This document shows, in pieces, positions 15,713 to 61,254 of a stretch of 64,000 nucleotides of DNA. Where the stretch lies: the IMG/VR virus record IMGVR_UViG_2850808358_000005, one strand, 5' to 3'. This stretch comes from a virus (lineage: Duplodnaviria; Heunggongvirae; Uroviricota; Caudoviricetes). The translations under genes and the position numbers were made by a program. The stretch's first letter is position 1; each line of letters starts with the position of its first letter. The notes under the pieces are model-generated. The model worked only from the letters and a program-made list of their open reading frames with translations. It had not been told where the DNA came from and did no database searches.

Positions 15713-15787
<75 letters not shown>

Positions 15788-15790
15788 ATA

Positions 15791-15866
<76 letters not shown>

Positions 15867-15868
15867 GC

Positions 15869-15945
15869 TGGCCCACCACCGAGGACTCGAACCTCGCACC
15901 GTCAACTTAGAAGGTTGATGCTCTATCCGGATGAGCTAGTGGTGG
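15869..15945 (-). tRNA. tRNA-Arg (anticodon UCU, reads rare AGA)
   Basis: Anticodon arm TCAAC-CTTCTAA-GTTGA; T-arm GGTTCGAGTCC; CCA encoded; phage argN/argO-like. Confidence 0.8.
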
Positions 15946-15946
15946 T

Positions 15947-16023
15947 TGGTGGCCCTTGCTGGACTTGAACCAGCGACCTGGCGATTATGAGTCGCTCGCT
16001 CTGACCAACTGAGCTAAAGGGCC
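15947..16023 (-). tRNA. tRNA-Ile2-like (anticodon CAU; could be elongator Met)
   Basis: Closely resembles E. coli ileX (GGCCC.TTAGCTCAG...GCGACTCATAATCGC...GGTTCAAGTCCAGC); anticodon loop CUCAUAA. Confidence 0.7.
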
Positions 16024-18486: not shown

Positions 18487-19173
18487 TCACTCCTTCTCTT
18501 CTTTACCGTAGTGGAGTTGACCAATTTTGATAAGAGGGCGTCCCTGAGATTTGCGGTGTAGATTGGTATCGCGCAGAGAATACACACAGCCACAATATTC
18601 CTGCTGATAGAATTTTTCGCGCTTGCTGATTTCAATCATACGGGACGAGCCGCCCTGCTTGCGCCAGTTATAATCCCAGTACACCATGCCCGGATAATGC
18701 GCGACGGCTCGCCGCCCACAGTCGTTAACCTGCTGCATATTTTTCCAGCGTGAAATGCCCAGTGAACTGCTGATCACACTGAAACCATTTTCAGCGGCGT
18801 ACAGCGCTGTCCGCTCAAAACGCATGTCAAAACACATGGTGCAACGGATCCCTCGTTCGGGCTCCCATTCCATTCCTTTGGCTCGTTCAAACCAGTTGTC
18901 TGTGTCGTAATCAGCATCAATAAACGGCACGCCGTGTTGTTCAGCAAAGCGAATATTCTCATCCTTACGAATTAAATACTCTTTCTGAGGATGAATGTTC
19001 GGGTTGTAGAAAAAGATGGTGTAGTCGATTCCCGAGGCCTGAAGCGCCTCCATCACCTCACCGGAACATGGAGCACAGCAAGAGTGCAGTAGTAGTTTGT
19101 TTGCCCCGTTTGGGAGCTCCAATTTGGGCCGTTTGAAATCAGCAACTGTCATAAATATGTTTATTGGGGTCAT
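18487..19173 (-). CDS. epoxyqueuosine reductase QueH-like protein (DUF208)
   Basis: Cys motifs [11 protein letters not shown] and EYCGCVYS characteristic of DUF208/QueH; 228 aa. Confidence 0.6.
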
Positions 19174-20171: not shown

Positions 20172-20918
20172 CTACTTAACAACCCTCGAATGGCTAACAT
20201 TCGGACGCCAGCTCTCCCAGTTAAAATTCACCCAGCGCCCGCCGTTCATGACCATGCGATCCATCACCCGCTCGCCGAGCAATGTTTTCATCACCTCATA
20301 GTTCAGGTTTGTCAGCATCCCCACGCTGCGCATCGACGCTGTCCGGCGATCAACAATCTGGTGCAGCACCACCTGCTCGTTTTTCGTCTCGCGCTGAATG
20401 CCAATTTCATCAAGAACCAGCAGATCCACTTCGCACAGCTCCCGCAAAAATTTTTCGCCTGACTGCCCGTCGTCATAGCTGGCGTGCAGGGCGCTCATAA
20501 CATCAGCCACGGTAACCACAATCACTGTCTGACCGTCTTTCAGCAGGCGATTCCCGATAGCTGCCGCTAAGTGATTCTTCCCGGTACCAGGTTTTCCGCT
20601 GAACGCAAAATTTGTACACCCGGTCATCAGTTCATCGGCGATGGATTTCGCCTGGCTTAACGCGTATCGCTGGCCGTCGTTCTGCACCTGGTAATTCGCA
20701 AACGAGCATTTACGGTGCAACGGCTGGATGCCTGAGCGATTCAGAATTTTTTCCACCCGCAACTGGCGATTCAGGCGGTTGATCTCCTCGCTACGTTTCT
20801 GGCCTTCAGCAAGTTGCCACTCGCGCCACTCCGCTACCGTTCTGAATGGGGCGGTTACATGTGGCGGGGTCAGTCGGCGGATGCGTTCCAGAACGCCGCC
20901 TGTCGCAATATTTTTCAT
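20172..20918 (-). CDS. DnaC-like replication ATPase (YdaV-like)
   Basis: Walker A GKPGTGKNHLAAAIG and Walker B LLVLDEIG; follows the O-like gene. Confidence 0.75.
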   Translation of the reverse strand: MKNIATGGVLERIRRLTPPHVTAPFRTVAEWREWQLAEGQKRSEEINRLNRQLRVEKILNRSGIQPLHRKCSFANYQVQNDGQRYALSQAKSIADELMTGCTNFAFSGKPGTGKNHLAAAIGNRLLKDGQTVIVVTVADVMSALHASYDDGQSGEKFLRELCEVDLLVLDEIGIQRETKNEQVVLHQIVDRRTASMRSVGMLTNLNYEVMKTLLGERVMDRMVMNGGRWVNFNWESWRPNVSHSRVVK

Positions 20919-20924
20919 GGTCCG

Positions 20925-21707
20925 TTACCCCCTGAAGCCTGGCGGGATCGCACTGTCCGGCAACGAGACGGTGTTAACCTGTCGGAGCAACGTCTCAGGC
21001 CGAACACCTTTCGGCGCGAACAGGCCCTGGTATTCATTGGCGATGCTGTGTCGAATCACCTGCTCAGGTGTAAAACCCTGCTGACGGAATTTTTCCAGTT
21101 CCCGTATCGCCCCGTTAGCGCCCTGCTCCGTTCGAATCGGTTTTCGCAATGCCTGTCTGAACCGGACCCACTCATGCCAGAGTGTTTCCGGCAACCAATC
21201 GGGCAGCTCAATAGCCTCCGGCTCGAATTTTTTAGACGCTCGTTTTTGGCGAGGGGGATTTAGGGGGAGATCAGTATTTAGATCTTCCTCTTCCTCTGGT
21301 AACGCTTTTTGATCCGTTTGTGTAACGCTGGCAGCGTTACCTTTTCGTTTCAGTTCGCGTATTTTTGTTACTCGCTCGTTTGTAACCGCCCGTTTTTTAG
21401 AGCTTTTTCCGTTATGACGTTCAAAGTTAGGTAGAGAAAGCCCACCGTCATTTTCGACCAGCCATCCAACCTGAATTAACGCATCAGCAAAACCAGACAT
21501 AAAAGTGATGCGATCTATTGCACTTTTTGTAACGCCGCGAGCGTTACAATCTGCATTACCGTCTATCATTTGTTGATCCGCCCATGCCCAGAAGCGAATA
21601 ACCTTCCCTAATGCGGCATCTGGATCAATATTCAGAATCTCAGCAAGCCTGAATATTTCCGGCTTATCCGGCGTAATAACCTCGAGCTTTATCCAGTTTG
21701 AAGCCAT
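20925..21707 (-). CDS. replication initiation / primosomal protein (YdaU / O-like)
   Basis: 260-aa ORF upstream of the DnaC-like gene; contains palindromic TGTAACGC-N5-GCGTTACA motifs in its coding region. Confidence 0.55.
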   Translation of the reverse strand: MASNWIKLEVITPDKPEIFRLAEILNIDPDAALGKVIRFWAWADQQMIDGNADCNARGVTKSAIDRITFMSGFADALIQVGWLVENDGGLSLPNFERHNGKSSKKRAVTNERVTKIRELKRKGNAASVTQTDQKALPEEEEDLNTDLPLNPPRQKRASKKFEPEAIELPDWLPETLWHEWVRFRQALRKPIRTEQGANGAIRELEKFRQQGFTPEQVIRHSIANEYQGLFAPKGVRPETLLRQVNTVSLPDSAIPPGFRG

Positions 21708-21784
21708 TTGTTTTCACCTTGTAACGCTCGCAGCGTTACATTTAACTGATACCGAACAAAACAATCCGGCACGATTAATTTCAA

Positions 21785-22207
21785 TCAATGCACTACGACA
21801 GAATCGCCGGGCGACCCACCACCGCTGAAATGTGCTTTCCGGTAAACGGCCTGGACAGCATCATCATGCGCATCAATTGCCGTACTCAACGCTTCCTGCG
21901 CCGCCAGTAATGCACGGCGTTCCAGGGTATCGAAGATACAGAGTCGGTGACGCAGCTCACGCGGAAGAATTGCCAGAACCGCAGGGATCAGTTTCTGAAT
22001 TTTTTCCCTTTGCGCTTTCGTTTCACCTTTCAACCAACGGTGATAGATATTCTGCTGATTGTTCCAGTCCTTGCCTGGTACCAGAGACAATTCGCCGCCC
22101 CCCTGCCGCAGATATTCTTCAGTAATTGCGTTAGCGACCCACGCCTGCCCTTTTTCGGCTGCCAGGGCTAACAACACTGATTCGATGTGCTCATGCCTGA
22201 TTTTCAT
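21785..22207 (-). CDS. YdaT-like protein (CII-position regulator)
   Basis: MKIRHEHIESVLLALAAEKGQAWVANAITEEYLRQGGGEL... closely matches my recollection of Rac YdaT. Confidence 0.6.
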   Translation of the reverse strand: MKIRHEHIESVLLALAAEKGQAWVANAITEEYLRQGGGELSLVPGKDWNNQQNIYHRWLKGETKAQREKIQKLIPAVLAILPRELRHRLCIFDTLERRALLAAQEALSTAIDAHDDAVQAVYRKAHFSGGGSPGDSVVVH

Positions 22208-22466
22208 GAATCATCCCCCGTGAATTTTGTGTGCTAGCCTTACATCCAACAGGTAAACCGTCGGTTGGGTTGGGGTACAAATCTGGCCGCAACTCATGAG
22301 GAGTAACCCCAGTTGCAAGGTAAATTTGGCGAACTCGTTCTCCTGTCGGCACTCGACCATGGTATTCATTTACCCATTTGTGTATTTGGGACGGCCAGGC
22401 CCCTATTGCGCGCCCTAACGGGCGAATACCACCAGCAATCTTTATTGCTTTATCCAAAGCAGTCAT
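22191..22466 (-). CDS. Cro-like HTH regulator (YdaS-like)
   Basis: Divergent from the repressor gene; HTH-like; start at internal Met MTALDK to leave a 104-bp operator region. Confidence 0.55.
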   Translation of the reverse strand: MTALDKAIKIAGGIRPLGRAIGAWPSQIHKWVNEYHGRVPTGERVRQIYLATGVTPHELRPDLYPNPTDGLPVGCKASTQNSRGMIHENQA

Positions 22467-22570
22467 ACAATCCTCCACTTCAATCAAACACAACAATTGT
22501 TCACTTAAAAAGAACATAAGTCAACACCCTGAGAAATTGTTAGTGTTCACTGAACGGTTATAATTGCCAA
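22467..22570. promoter_or_regulatory. divergent immunity promoter/operator region
   Basis: Palindromes TGTTCACTTAAAAAGAACA (22498..22516) and GTTCACTGAAC (22545..22555); TATAAT at 22559..22564 only 6 nt before the repressor ATG (leaderless-like). Confidence 0.45.
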
Positions 22571-22960
22571 ATGGACATGAGAAAAAAGCAATACGACACC
22601 CCGCTGGCAGAAAGGTTAGATACGATCTCGCAACAGCATCACTTAAGCGGTTCAGATTTAGCGCGTATCGCTGGTGTAGGTCGCTCATCAGTTAACGCAT
22701 GGAAAAAAAGAGGAACAATCAGTAAAGATTCCGCGGCAAAAATTGCAGAAGCTACAAACGTATCCCTTTCCTGGTTGCTGACAGGAAAAGAAGATAGCAA
22801 TAGAGAGACACTTGATGATGATGAGAAAGCCCTGCTTGATGTTTACAGAAATCTGCCACCTGTAGAACGCAGAAATATGCTTGCAGCTTTTCAAATGCGA
22901 CTTCAAAAACTGACTGAATTTTATTCAGAATACGTTGACCCAGCAACGCGTCAAAAATAA
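22571..22960 (+). CDS. cI-like prophage repressor (XRE-family HTH, RacR-like)
   Basis: HTH motif LSGSDLARIAGVGRSSVNAWKK; divergently arranged with the cro-like gene. Confidence 0.6.
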   Translation: MDMRKKQYDTPLAERLDTISQQHHLSGSDLARIAGVGRSSVNAWKKRGTISKDSAAKIAEATNVSLSWLLTGKEDSNRETLDDDEKALLDVYRNLPPVERRNMLAAFQMRLQKLTEFYSEYVDPATRQK

Positions 22961-23004: not shown

Positions 23005-23127
23005 GCCTTTTATGAATTCATAATGTTGACATATGTTCATTTAAAGAGAACAATGTATTCCATCAAAGCACAACGGTGCGACAGGTTTTAGTTCCGCCAC
23101 CCGGCGTTAAGGGGAAATGAGGTCAGC

Positions 23128-29283: not shown

Positions 29284-29692
29284 AATCTATGGCGCTTTTT
29301 CAACGAGCAATAAACACACAGGCCTATCTAAAAGCAGGAATTATGGGGTTTGCTGGCGACGGCAAAACCTACACAGCAAGCGAACTGGCTATTGGTCTGG
29401 TAATGCTTATGCGGCAACGGGGAATTGAAGCTGGTAACCGCCCGGTAATGTTTCTGGACACAGAAACAGGCTCTGACTGGGTTAAACCCCGCTTTGATGC
29501 GGAAAATATCGAATTATTTACGGCAAAAACCCGCTCGTTTGTTGATCTGCTTGAAGCCATTAATGAAGCGGAAAGCAGCGGTTCCGTAATGATCATCGAC
29601 TCCATCAGTCACTTCTGGACCGGATTATGCGACGAGTATGCCAGACGCCGAAACCGTAAACGAGGACTGGAATTTTCAGACTGGGCGTGGCT

Positions 29693-39683: not shown

Positions 39684-39986
39684 TTAACGCGTATTTTTCA
39701 GCGACTCCTGTGCAAAATACGCTGTTGCTTTTTTTAATATATCTCGCTCAAGGCGAGCTTCATTTAACGCCTTACGCAGTTGCAGAATTTCAGATTCCAG
39801 TTCAGCCACCGTGCGGGAACCAGGAGTACCGAGCCCTTTTCTGGCGGCGGTAACCCATTGTCCTAAAGTGCCTTCAGGAAGGGATAATCGGGAAGCGCCT
39901 TCACTGATCGAAAGTTGATTTTCAAGAACCGTTCTGACAGCTTCGGCTTTGAACTCTTTAGAGTAACGTTGGGTTTTTCTGCTCAT
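39684..39986 (-). CDS. IS600 transposase OrfA
   Basis: Near-identical to the other OrfA copies. Confidence 0.85.
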   Translation of the reverse strand: MSRKTQRYSKEFKAEAVRTVLENQLSISEGASRLSLPEGTLGQWVTAARKGLGTPGSRTVAELESEILQLRKALNEARLERDILKKATAYFAQESLKNTR

Positions 39987-40050
39987 TATTAGCTCCTTCT
40001 GATGCCATTCTATTTCAGGAAGGAGTGTCCGTTAAACTCAGGCTACCTCA

Positions 40051-40718
40051 GTGTCATTTTGCGCGGCTGCCAGTGTATTGAGCAAATTACCAACACCAGA
40101 AAAATAAGGCGAATAAGTGCTTTCTGCCGCCTTTAACTCTCCTGGAGTTGCCTGCAATTCATCAGCATTTTTCTGTTTCTCTACAACATTACGAGCCATC
40201 ATGCCAAAGCCAAACGGCCCGGCAACGCCCATAACCGCAAGTTTTGTCCCCCACGATACGGTGGTTTTAAACAGGTTGTTTAATCTCGAAGTGGTCGTCC
40301 GTAGCGTAGAATTGATCTGCTTGTAAGTTTTCAGCGTCTGTTTGGCGTTTTTCCCCAGCCCGCTGAGGTACTTATCAAACATCGTTTCGCCGCGACCTTT
40401 ATAGTTGCTCACCAGCGAATCAGGTGTTTTCCCGCTGCCAACAAAGCGCCATTTTTCATCCCTTAAACGTCCATCAGTGGAAGCAGCCAGAACTGGCGCG
40501 GGTGAAGATGGTTTCCTGGGAGCCTGATTGGCTTCTCCGCCTGTGGTTGTCTGCCAAGAGCCACCTCCCGGACCGGTATTTGAAGGTATTTTAAGCGGCG
40601 TACCGGCAGGGCCAATCATCAGTCCGTTGCGATACTTTTCAAATATCGCCTCAAGCCGCCTGAGGTGTTCTTCATTAACATCCAGCGTCAGAACTGGCAT
40701 CTGGTTACCAGCCATCAC
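40051..40718 (-). pseudogene. phage structural gene (possibly tape measure N-terminus), C-terminally truncated by IS600 copy 3
   Basis: 223 native codons then 3 IS-derived codons and a stop; last gene of the structural operon before the IS. Confidence 0.35.
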
Positions 40719-53511: not shown

Positions 53512-53586
<75 letters not shown>

Positions 53587-53589
53587 ATA

Positions 53590-53665
<76 letters not shown>

Positions 53666-53667
53666 GC

Positions 53668-53744
53668 TGGCCCACCACCGAGGACTCGAACCTCGCACCG
53701 TCAACTTAGAAGGTTGATGCTCTATCCGGATGAGCTAGTGGTGG
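53668..53744 (-). tRNA. tRNA-Arg (UCU), second copy
   Basis: Identical to 15869..15945. Confidence 0.8.
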
Positions 53745-53745
53745 T

Positions 53746-53822
53746 TGGTGGCCCTTGCTGGACTTGAACCAGCGACCTGGCGATTATGAGTCGCTCGCTC
53801 TGACCAACTGAGCTAAAGGGCC
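53746..53822 (-). tRNA. tRNA-Ile2-like (CAU), second copy
   Basis: Identical to 15947..16023. Confidence 0.7.
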
Positions 53823-59989: not shown

Positions 59990-60032
59990 TGAGGTGTACT
60001 GGCAATAGCGGACACTACCATTTGTTCTTTTT

Positions 60033-60851
60033 TTAAGCAGCCATCTGATGATATTTTTCCCTGAAGGCTGCCGGGGAGATATTCCCCAGACGAGAGTGAC
60101 GACGCTGACGATTGTAGAAAATCTCAATGTATTCCCGTATTACTGAGATGGCTTCATCCCGGTTATTAAAACGATAGTGGCTCAGGCTCTCATTTTTCAG
60201 CGTTCCCCAGAAGCTTTCCATCGGAGCGTTGTCGTAACAGTTACCTTTACGCGACATTGATGTTTTCAGACCAAACTGCTCCTGTATGACCCGGTAATCG
60301 TATGCGCAGTACTGTGAACCTCGATCAGAGTGGTGGATTAGCCCGGCAGGTGGGCGCTGGCTCCTGAGCGCCATAAACAGGGCTTTACCTGTCAGCTCTT
60401 TTGTCATGCGCGCTCCCATGGCGTAGCCGACAATTTCGCACGTATAAACATCTTTGATGCCAGCGAGGTACAACCATCCCTCCTGTGTGGCAACATACGT
60501 CAGGTCCGCCACCCAGACCTGATTTGGTGCTGTAGGAGCGAACGTCTGGTTCAGCAGATTTGGCGCAACTGGCAGATTGTGGTTCGGGTTCGTAGTCGCT
60601 CTGAACTTGCGTTTCTGCTTACAGCGTAGCCTTAGCTCCTTACGAAGACGTGCCAGTCGGTCACGACCAACGATGATGCCATTCTCTGCCAGCTCCGTCT
60701 GGAGCCGCCGGGTTCCATATGTTTCGCGAGTGCGGATATGTGCCACCTTAATCTCCAGTTTTAGCCGCTCATCACTTTGTTTTCTGTCTGAGGGTTCATG
60801 CTGTACCCAGTTGTAATAACCGCTCCTGGATACACCAAATACCTGACACAT
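60033..60851 (-). CDS. IS600 transposase OrfB
   Basis: 272-aa ORF, near-identical to the other copies (one substitution, GARM versus GERM). Confidence 0.8.
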   Translation of the reverse strand: MCQVFGVSRSGYYNWVQHEPSDRKQSDERLKLEIKVAHIRTRETYGTRRLQTELAENGIIVGRDRLARLRKELRLRCKQKRKFRATTNPNHNLPVAPNLLNQTFAPTAPNQVWVADLTYVATQEGWLYLAGIKDVYTCEIVGYAMGARMTKELTGKALFMALRSQRPPAGLIHHSDRGSQYCAYDYRVIQEQFGLKTSMSRKGNCYDNAPMESFWGTLKNESLSHYRFNNRDEAISVIREYIEIFYNRQRRHSRLGNISPAAFREKYHQMAA

Positions 60852-60886
60852 CGCTTCAATGGGAAATTGTTGTCGCCATTGTTCGA

Positions 60887-61190
60887 TTAACGCGTATTTT
60901 TCAGCGACTCCTGTGCAAAATACGCTGTTGCTTTTTTTAATATATCTCGCTCAAGGCGAGCTTCATTTAACGCCTTACGCAGTTGCAGAATTTCAGATTC
61001 CAGTTCAGCCACCGTGCAGGAACCAGGAGTACCGAGCCCTTTTCTGGCGGCGGTAACCCATTGTCCTAAAGTGCCTTCAGGAAGGGATAATCGGGAAGCG
61101 CCTTCACTGATCGAAAGTTGATTTTCAAGAACCGTTCTGACAGCTTCGGCTTTGAACTCTTTAGAGTAACGTTGGGTTTTTTCTGCTCAT
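60887..61190 (-). pseudogene. IS600 orfA, frameshifted after codon 4
   Basis: T-run at 61177..61182 is T6 versus T5 in copy 3, giving MSRKNPTLL-stop. Confidence 0.7.
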
Positions 61191-61254
61191 TATTAGCTCC
61201 TTCTGATGCCATTCTATTTCAGGAAGGAGTGTCCGTTAAACTCAGGCTACCTCA

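Follow-up and report, generated by a model that had tools for sequence, protein, structure and literature searches.

Conserved palindromes inside a phage initiator gene as a candidate replication origin

The question raised by this locus is why one palindrome is repeated three times in and just upstream of a single gene. The stretch of DNA analysed here (the window, 64,000 nucleotides (nt) in length) belongs to a Caudoviricetes virus (IMG/VR record IMGVR_UViG_2850808358_000005), and the gene, on its minus strand, encodes a predicted replication initiator of 260 amino acids (aa). Two explanations had been offered in the initial annotation, namely an iteron or origin organisation as inside lambda O, or binding sites for regulators of the YdaT/YdaS type. 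Based on a comparison of about 90 diverged homologues, cultured phages included, we consider it fairly probable that the palindromes are the recognition sites of the initiator and together form a replication origin inside its coding sequence.

Palindromes of the window and their recurrence among homologues

Three near-perfect palindromes about 200 base pairs (bp) apart had been noticed at the locus, and both their coordinates and their spacing proved correct. A scan for TGTAACGC-N5-GCGTTACA with at most three mismatches returned exactly three matches in the 64-kb window, compared with a shuffle expectation of 0.15, and three or more matches were obtained in 0 of 100 shuffles. No other match was present in the window, and the motif does not occur at a similar density genome-wide. 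The palindromes lie in the order B, A, C, with spacings of 207 and 192 bp. The features of the gene and its sites are as follows:

20925-21707, minus: initiator ("O-like") gene, 260 aa
21342-21707, minus: N-terminal domain, predicted to be winged-helix-like (aa ~10-122, AlphaFold2 model)
aa 123-166: disordered linker (AlphaFold2 model)
20925-21209, minus: DnaT-like C-terminal domain (aa 167-260)
21720-21740: palindrome C, 0 mismatches, TGTAACGC-TCGCA-GCGTTACA, 13 nt 5' of the initiator ATG
21528-21548: palindrome A, 0 mismatches, TGTAACGC-N5-GCGTTACA, in the gene at +160 from the ATG
21321-21341: palindrome B, 1 mismatch (last base C), in the gene at +367
21553-21560, minus: degenerate extra half-site GGTAATGC, 12 nt upstream of palindrome A in gene sense
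21346-21351, minus: degenerate half-site GAAACG, 12 nt upstream of palindrome B
21298-21305, minus: unpaired half-site GCGTTACC, encoding A-L-P, the same motif as the palindrome right arm in another frame
21283-21297, minus (coding strand): polypurine GA tract AGAGGAAGAGGAAGA, adjoining the unpaired half-site

Palindromes A and B are located inside the open reading frame of the initiator and palindrome C outside it, followed immediately on its 3' side (gene sense) by the ribosome-binding site AAGGTG. On the minus strand, palindrome A translates as C-N-A-R-G-V-T, and palindrome B, which reads GGTAACGC-TGCCA-GCGTTACA, as G-N-A-A-S-V-T. The arms of the window palindromes are 8-N5-8, and the general motif is 7-N5-7 (GTAACGC-N5-GCGTTAC, 19 bp in all). 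Seven of the 23 GTAACGC/GCGTTAC 7-mers of the window sit in 21299-21740, and all three palindromes were kept in 80 of 80 close relatives among viral contigs. A half-site that had been placed at 21381 reads TGTAAC-C-GC, with an insertion of 1 nt, and GTTAC occurred there in just 3 of 49 homologues, so it was not counted. Two elements had been missed at first: the conserved half-site downstream of B (GTAACGC at 21299-21305 in plus-strand letters) and the GA tract beside it. DnaA boxes with at most one mismatch were not found in 20900-21800, and an Rfam scan of the region gave no match at E <= 1 except a spurious tmRNA fragment.

Homologous loci were collected by scanning a profile of the N-terminal domain (N-domain) over one genome per species, which resulted in 80 loci, 78 of them non-duplicate, with 43-100% amino acid identity and 41-66% GC. 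They were assigned to Enterobacterales, Pseudomonas, Betaproteobacteria, Planctomycetota, and Verrucomicrobiota. Palindromes were called in these 3.4-kb loci as GTAACGC-N5-GCGTTAC with at most 2 mismatches in 14 positions, and the same palindromes recurred at matching positions of the gene. Palindrome A occurred at about +148 to +160 in 67 of 78 loci and palindrome B at +337 to +393, likewise in 67 of 78, with both present in 62 loci at a distance of 189-231 bp. Outside the gene, in about 230 kb of flanks of these 3.4-kb loci, only two marginal matches with two mismatches were found. Palindrome C was found at -32 to -44 solely in Enterobacterales loci with an intergenic gap (L085, L087-L089, L091, and L092), and it occurred also in loci that do not encode YdaT (L089 and L092). 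In Klebsiella ST11-OXA245phi3.2, Escherichia TL-2011b, and Enterobacter BUCT554, of which the N-terminal coding half is 68-70% identical to the window at the nucleotide level, both in-gene palindromes were retained 209 bp apart, with spacers that vary freely.

The N-domain family is large, with 6,747 representatives of 50%-identity clusters at E <= 1e-3 and 4,263 at E <= 1e-10. Its members were found in cultured phages of at least eight host genera, with hosts such as Salmonella (epsilon15), E. coli, Klebsiella, Xanthomonas, Ralstonia, Pseudomonas, and Vibrio. A protein search of a plasmid collection resulted in two matches, both probably phage-like replicons. A Pseudomonas-type copy of the gene with its sites was also present in a 1551-bp contig titled Streptomyces hayashii (L144), which is probably a contamination in that assembly.

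Around palindrome B, up to four half-sites form a cluster with a spacing of 11-12 bp. Upstream of B, exact GTAACG was found at -11/-12 or -23/-24 in 35 of 68 loci, and downstream of it exact CGTTAC was found in 52 of 68 loci (41 at +6/+7, 8 at +18, and 3 at +30). The GA tract of relatives typically reads CC[A/T][A/G]GAGAAGAGAAGAGAAGAG and in most of them takes the form (GAGAA)n over 15-26 nt. Purine content was 79-83% and AT content 61-65% at 30-65 nt past the start of B, with baselines of about 53 and 45%, respectively. At least 19 purines in 21 nt occurred in 63 of 84 loci and (GAGAA)x3 in 29 of 86. The tract was common to all classes of palindrome that are described below, always with the purine-rich strand as the coding strand. 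A reverse test started from the DNA alone: the exact 23-nt junction GCGTTACC[AT][AG]GAGAAGAGAAGAG was present in 113 viral-contig stretches, and 78 of the 80 that were assessed encoded the N-domain, the median position of the junction being +390, while the remaining two were cut within 51 nt of the contig end. At palindrome A of the window, an insertion of four codons in 21528-21560 (DGNAD-CNARGVTK, compared with 'DGNAxSVTK' in relatives) duplicates the half-site, so that GGTAATGC is followed by TGTAACGC. An extra upstream half-site at the same spacing was found at A in 6 of 68 loci, and the insertion seems to have enlarged the array of sites locally, inside the coding region.

Selection on the DNA and covariation with the protein

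In its usual frame the motif is read as xGT-AAC-GCx-xxx-xGC-GTT-ACx, corresponding to [G/S/C]-N-A-x-[S/G/C]-V-T. Codons within the motif were distributed as follows:

Val GTT: 123 of 126 in the motif, 28% elsewhere in the same genes
Gly GGT: 81 of 84 in the motif, 23% elsewhere in the same genes
Asn AAC: 125 of 125 in the motif, 63% elsewhere in the same genes
First codon: amino acid varies (G/S/C/R), base pattern NGT in 116 of 126
Fifth codon: amino acid varies (S/N/G/T/I), base pattern NNC in 124 of 126

In a codon alignment of the first 110 codons (109 aligned columns), third-position entropy averaged 1.46 bits, and the only two degenerate codons with less than 0.5 bits were both located within palindrome A. 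The 7-mer GCGTTAC encodes S-V-T in the palindrome and A-L-P in the downstream half-site, and about 14 loci carry palindrome B in another frame, as V-T-Q-x-A-L. The conserved unit is the DNA, not the protein.

This excludes a protein-level explanation, as two reading frames are used and synonymous sites are fixed while the amino acids vary. Although the peptide 'DGNAxSVTK' is conserved in the family alignment, the protein model is disordered or of lower confidence where the palindromes fall, and it is scarcely credible that they are the by-product of a motif [GSC]-N-A-x-[SGC]-V-T. Chance deserves no more credit, considering the excess over the shuffled window and the recurrence across about 90 loci. 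Folding of the palindromes into mRNA hairpins or DNA cruciforms, with a role in stability, processing, translational control, or termination, is quite improbable as well. Among 103 departures of the arms from the consensus, pairing was broken in 100, compensated in 1, and changed to G-U in 2; together with the conservation of unpaired half-sites, these uncompensated changes make a hairpin unlikely. The arm sequence itself is conserved, Rfam gave no match, and no T-run follows in the sense direction. In favour of folding, each palindrome could make a stem of 7-8 bp with a 5-nt loop, one locus (L130) shows a symmetric double change in its arms, and palindrome B scores as terminator-like in antisense, where its hairpin is followed by CTTTTCGTTT.

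The terminator-like sequence was observed on the plus strand at 21322-21350 and is caused by an AAAAG spacer often seen in relatives. It could either terminate antisense transcription or be incidental.

More distant N-domains (32-37% identity) retained the layout with a different palindrome. In epsilon15, phiPSA1, Klebsiella BUCT711, and Ralstonia RPZH3, GTCCGC-N7-GCGGAC was found at +65 and at +341 to +365, and the B site was followed by a GCGGAC-type half-site (GCGGTCC in RPZH3) and then by AGAGAAGAGAAGAGAAGAGAAGA. In Cobetia Carin1 this palindrome was confined to +344 and the tract was weaker; the N-domains of these five phages have 32-35% identity. In Ralstonia Raharianne, GTAGACG-N6-CGTCTAC was found at +153 and +369, with the same GA tract after it. 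A Planctomycetales locus (L128) carried GTTGCGC-N5-GCGCAAC at +139 and +328 with two extra GCGCAAC half-sites and a GA tract, and L130 carried GTCACGC...GCGTGAC. All copies within one locus change in concert, and such covariation of N-domain and sites is what would be expected of an initiator with its binding sites. The genus Uetakevirus includes two phages of different palindrome class, BUCT554 and BUCT711, which indicates that the class follows the N-domain and not the phage group or host. The covariation of sites and N-domain argues against a host factor as the reader. As far as comparative sequence data reach, these patterns establish that the bases of the palindrome are constrained by a sequence-specific reader that co-evolves with the N-domain.

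Initiator, neighbouring genes, and the origin model

The 260-aa protein matched no Pfam family at E <= 0.01. It was assigned in PHROGs to phrog_2509, 'replication initiation protein' (E 2e-87); E. coli RefSeq lists the gene as a 'hypothetical protein'. The AlphaFold2 model gave the N-domain the topology helix, helix, loop, helix, helix, beta-hairpin, and long basic helix, which is read here with moderate confidence as a winged helix, and the C-terminal domain was helical. A Foldseek search of the full-length model against the PDB resulted in no significant match, and for a model of the N-domain only, the nearest named viral models were a 'replisome organizer' (E 2e-3, 21% identity) and DUF1376/YdaU proteins. 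Palindrome A encodes a lower-confidence loop (aa 47-60) between N-domain helices, and the coding sequence of the disordered linker that follows the N-domain contains palindrome B and the GA tract, so the DNA elements sit where the protein tolerates them. The C-terminal part (aa 167-260) matched 2ru8 (E 9.3e-5) and 9zbt (E 2.7e-4) in a phmmer search of PDB sequences. It aligned with DnaT residues 91-179, with the near-identical tail VNTVS-PDS-IPPGFRG. The NCBIfam DnaT model matched this tail only, far below the family cut-off, which points to a shared domain and not to a full-length DnaT. Judging by these matches, the initiator resembles an origin-binding domain fused to a DnaT mimic.

The gene is located in the early region of a Rac-like lambdoid prophage (20.1-23.0 kb), which is 96-100% identical to E. 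coli and Shigella sequences. Its neighbours are as follows:

22571-22960, plus: cI-type repressor gene
22496-22524, minus: PR-like sigma-70 promoter TTGACT-17-AACAAT, driving the ydaS-ydaT-initiator-loader operon
22191-22517, minus: YdaS/Cro-like gene
21785-22207, minus: YdaT/CII-like gene
20172-20918, minus: DnaC/IstB-like AAA+ helicase-loader gene, YdaV-like (Pfam IstB_IS21 1e-19, Bac_DnaA)

The loader gene lies directly downstream of the initiator gene and is followed in the region by DUF977, zinc-ribbon, and QueH genes; its DnaC-like product is presumed to be the helicase-loading partner of the initiator. As the PR-like promoter drives the whole operon, its transcript reads through all three palindromes, and a consensus scan from ydaT to the initiator found no separate sigma-70-like promoter. 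Co-occurrence was counted in 91 diverse loci with 1.5-kb flanks, of which 14 encoded a DnaC-like protein, 6 the C-terminal domain of the window, and 5 each YdaT and YdaS. The downstream partner varies by lineage and is a DnaC-like loader, a DnaB helicase, or neither, and the sole constant companion of the sites is the N-domain.

In the mechanism proposed for the origin, dimers of the N-domain would bind GTAACGC-N5-GCGTTAC. The origin core would be the B cluster, composed of an upstream half-site, the palindrome, and a downstream half-site with a spacing of about 11-12 bp in most lineages. The GA tract abutting it would be an unwinding or single-strand element, where the duplex opens, and the DnaT-like C-terminal domain and the DnaC-like loader would recruit the DnaB helicase of the host. 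As in lambda, the transcript of the PR-like promoter would cross the origin. Palindromes A and C may be auxiliary, either in building the nucleoprotein complex or in self-repression of the initiator, and through palindrome C, which lies at the ribosome-binding site, the initiator may keep its own synthesis in check.

A different role of the GA tract is conceivable but unlikely: as a polypurine element it would hold the PR-type transcript in a stable R-loop or yield from it a primer that resists RNase H. Helicase loading could in that case be transcript-primed and mediated by the DnaT mimic, with the palindrome-bound N-domain positioning the DnaT-like domain on the displaced strand. The constant coding orientation of the purine-rich strand and the DnaT-like domain of the initiator are cited for this role, DnaT being a component of the primosome for replication starts at R-loops and D-loops. 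Such a mechanism, if true, would be distinct from the O-P route of lambda. Alternatively, (GAGAA)n could be a sequence-specific binding track for single strands, by analogy with the DnaA-trios.

Several observations weigh against reading the sites as an origin. Helical phasing of the distance between A and B was tested and none was found, some loci are without palindrome A, and in the epsilon15 class palindrome A is shifted to +65. The GA tract of the window is short (15 nt), and its downstream half-site is 16 nt from B, compared with the usual 4-5 nt. Arginine was encoded by AGA in 110 of 117 cases within the GA tract compared with 6%, a contrast that is partly circular as the tract was picked by its purine content. 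Two to three full palindromes 190-230 bp apart with half-sites are also unlike the four to six tandem iterons at 20-24 bp of lambda. A subgroup of Verrucomicrobiaceae/Prosthecobacter metagenome-assembled genomes (L109, L151, and L154-L158) keeps the protein and carries neither palindromes nor GA tract, with just a degenerate CAAACGATTTAAACGTTAC at site A. The gene can thus occur apart from the sites, and these genomes could have their origin at another position; the genes of this subgroup may be decayed or domesticated copies, or may rely on such an origin. In the full-text literature searched, neither binding or replication experiments on the family nor a description of the origin, the motif, the GA tract, or the origin of epsilon15 was found, although this coverage was incomplete and an earlier report is possible.

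Among the alternatives that accept a DNA-binding reader, the sites could be bound by the initiator as operators only, either as a roadblock on the PR-type transcript or by occluding the ribosome-binding site at C. This is unlikely, yet of the alternatives it deserves the most attention: palindrome C abuts the ribosome-binding site, a read-through roadblock is conceivable as no separate promoter was found, one subgroup has the protein without the sites, and plasmid Rep proteins autorepress through inverted repeats. Palindrome C is, however, confined to Enterobacterales, and the universally conserved unit is the B cluster with the GA tract, deep in the gene at the domain boundary, a layout shared with the lambda and SPP1 origins and without an obvious operator logic. 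Rather unlikely is a reader other than the initiator, whether a conserved host protein or another phage protein. Binding by the initiator itself rests on inference, the unusual constancy of GTAACGC from phylum to phylum could point to a universal reader, and so could the GA tract, which is common to different specificity classes. Against such a reader, the class switches with the N-domain subfamily inside a single phage genus (BUCT554 and BUCT711) and between host genera that are close relatives (TL-2011b and epsilon15), the same class spans unrelated hosts, and no other gene co-occurs consistently. That YdaT (CII-like) or YdaS (Cro-like) uses the palindromes as operators, which had been the second suggestion of the initial annotation, is very improbable even though both genes lie immediately upstream in this prophage. 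Each is missing from 86 of the 91 loci, most of which bear palindromes, and the footprinted YdaT box is a different sequence, ATGATT/TTGATT-N6-AATCAA (PMC11879457, PMC9986795). The two matches to that box are unlike the palindrome: ATGATTCATGAAAATCAG (22197-22214, minus strand) overlaps the ydaT start codon and differs in 1 base from the footprinted Rac box, and ACGATTAATTTCAATCAA (21771-21788, plus strand), also with 1 mismatch, overlaps the ydaT stop codon 31 bp before palindrome C. The repeats resembling cI/Cro operators, TGTTCA-N8-GAACA, differ from the palindrome too. Recognition by the initiator at an origin is the reading that we prefer.

The TGTTCA-N8-GAACA inverted repeats flank the cI-like gene. 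One (22498-22516) is located between cI and cro and overlaps the PR-like promoter, and the other (23034-23052) follows the cI terminator. They are probably repressor operators, with a sequence unrelated to the GTAACGC palindrome; a version with N7 was rejected, as the spacer is read as 8 nt.

Further features were observed in the window. A homologue of QueH (epoxyqueuosine reductase) is encoded in the early region, downstream of the replication genes (18487-19173, minus, Pfam E 2e-65). Two tRNA clusters on the minus strand (15713-16023 and 53512-53822) have the same order of Gly(tcc), Thr(tgt), Arg(tct), and Met(cat), and stretches of 300 nt flanking them are duplicated at 90-100% identity (14210/52009 and 16323/54967), suggesting that the window contains a second segment of related lambdoid prophage. 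An element of about 1.27 kb is present in at least four copies, in both orientations (29688-30958, 36211-37480, 38787-40051, and 59990-61231), with 100% identity over up to 1265 nt. The element is probably an insertion sequence (IS), which would fit a Shigella-like, IS-rich genome.

Significance and comparison with known systems

If the origin reading is true, the origins of thousands of phages and prophages would be marked by one simple DNA signature within the gene, namely two class-specific palindromes together with a half-site and a GA tract. Genes annotated as 'hypothetical' or 'primosomal protein I' would become replication initiators with an internal origin. The locus is also a clear natural case in which an overlapping cis-element constrains a coding sequence, and the GTAACGC, GTCCGC, GTAGACG, and GTTGCGC classes provide natural specificity-swap pairs for studying how predicted winged-helix initiators read DNA. 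For a pair of initiator and origin, it is unusual that the 14 specified bases are nearly invariant across phyla and the GA tract across classes, and this needs explaining. The system is best read as a variation on a known principle, the lambda/SPP1-style origin inside the initiator gene, in a large and essentially uncharacterised family with an unusual arrangement and unusually deep conservation of the DNA.

E. coli DnaT shares the C-terminal domain only. DnaT acts in PriA-dependent restart and not in sequence-specific initiation, and to our knowledge it has no origin-binding N-domain. Plasmid-type iterons, which are tandem direct repeats of 17-22 bp to which Rep monomers bind, were rejected as a counterpart, as the sites are inverted and not tandem. 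The YdaT box of Rac and CP-933P is likewise an inverted repeat with a short spacer in a prophage early region; its sequence is different, and it sits at the ydaT start, not in the initiator gene (PMC11879457, PMC9986795).

In SPP1, oriL is embedded in gene 38, with repeats bound by G38P (AB boxes) beside a DNA unwinding element and with the loader and helicase genes downstream (PMC5737612). The sites described here are similarly embedded in the gene of their own presumed organizer, beside a candidate unwinding element. The likeness to the SPP1 replisome organizer is weak and at the level of the fold only, as in the structural match given above, and the Pfam replisome-organizer model found no match. 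SPP1 also differs in repeat type and hosts, and a second copy comparable to oriR was not seen in the 64-kb window.

The closest comparison is with lambda, the origin of which was read from NC_001416. Four inverted-repeat iterons are located there at +349 to +433 of O, and palindrome B lies here at +337 to +393, so that in both cases the initiator gene contains the origin, or candidate origin, where the N-terminal domain meets the C-terminal domain. The repeat type is alike, an inverted repeat of about 19 bp (TCCCTCAAAACGAGGGA-type in lambda; PMC7466680), and in both a purine-rich, AT-rich tract of the coding strand follows the sites (in lambda AAAAGAAAAAAGAAAAGA, with the iterons followed by ACAAAAGACACTATTACAAAAGAAAAAAGAAAAGA; PMC7466680). 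A PR-type promoter transcribes the whole region in lambda and here. The comparison with lambda O in the initial annotation thus held in part: conservation at the DNA level, the position at the domain boundary, the purine- and AT-rich tract, and the covariation with the N-domain were all found, while a tandem iteron array and homology to lambda O were not. Pfam Phage_rep_O did not match, and hhalign of the N-domain profile with O gave a probability of 0.2%. The DnaT-like C-terminal domain and the GA repeat, in place of a simply AT-rich tract, are further differences from lambda. As far as is known, specificities of lambdoid sites diverge between phages, unlike the near-invariant site sequence described here.

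The N-domain and its sites travel as a swappable module, as in lambda. K-12 Rac ydaU shares the C-terminal part and has another N-domain (DUF1376-type), without GTAACGC palindromes, and the equivalent part of the gene (L001 1940-2240) carries five TTGAACATCTGC-like 12-mers. K-12 Rac has been reported with an active origin, oriJ (PMC3945230), of which these 12-mers may be the iterons, and the pattern of K-12 ydaU fits such a module of N-domain and sites.

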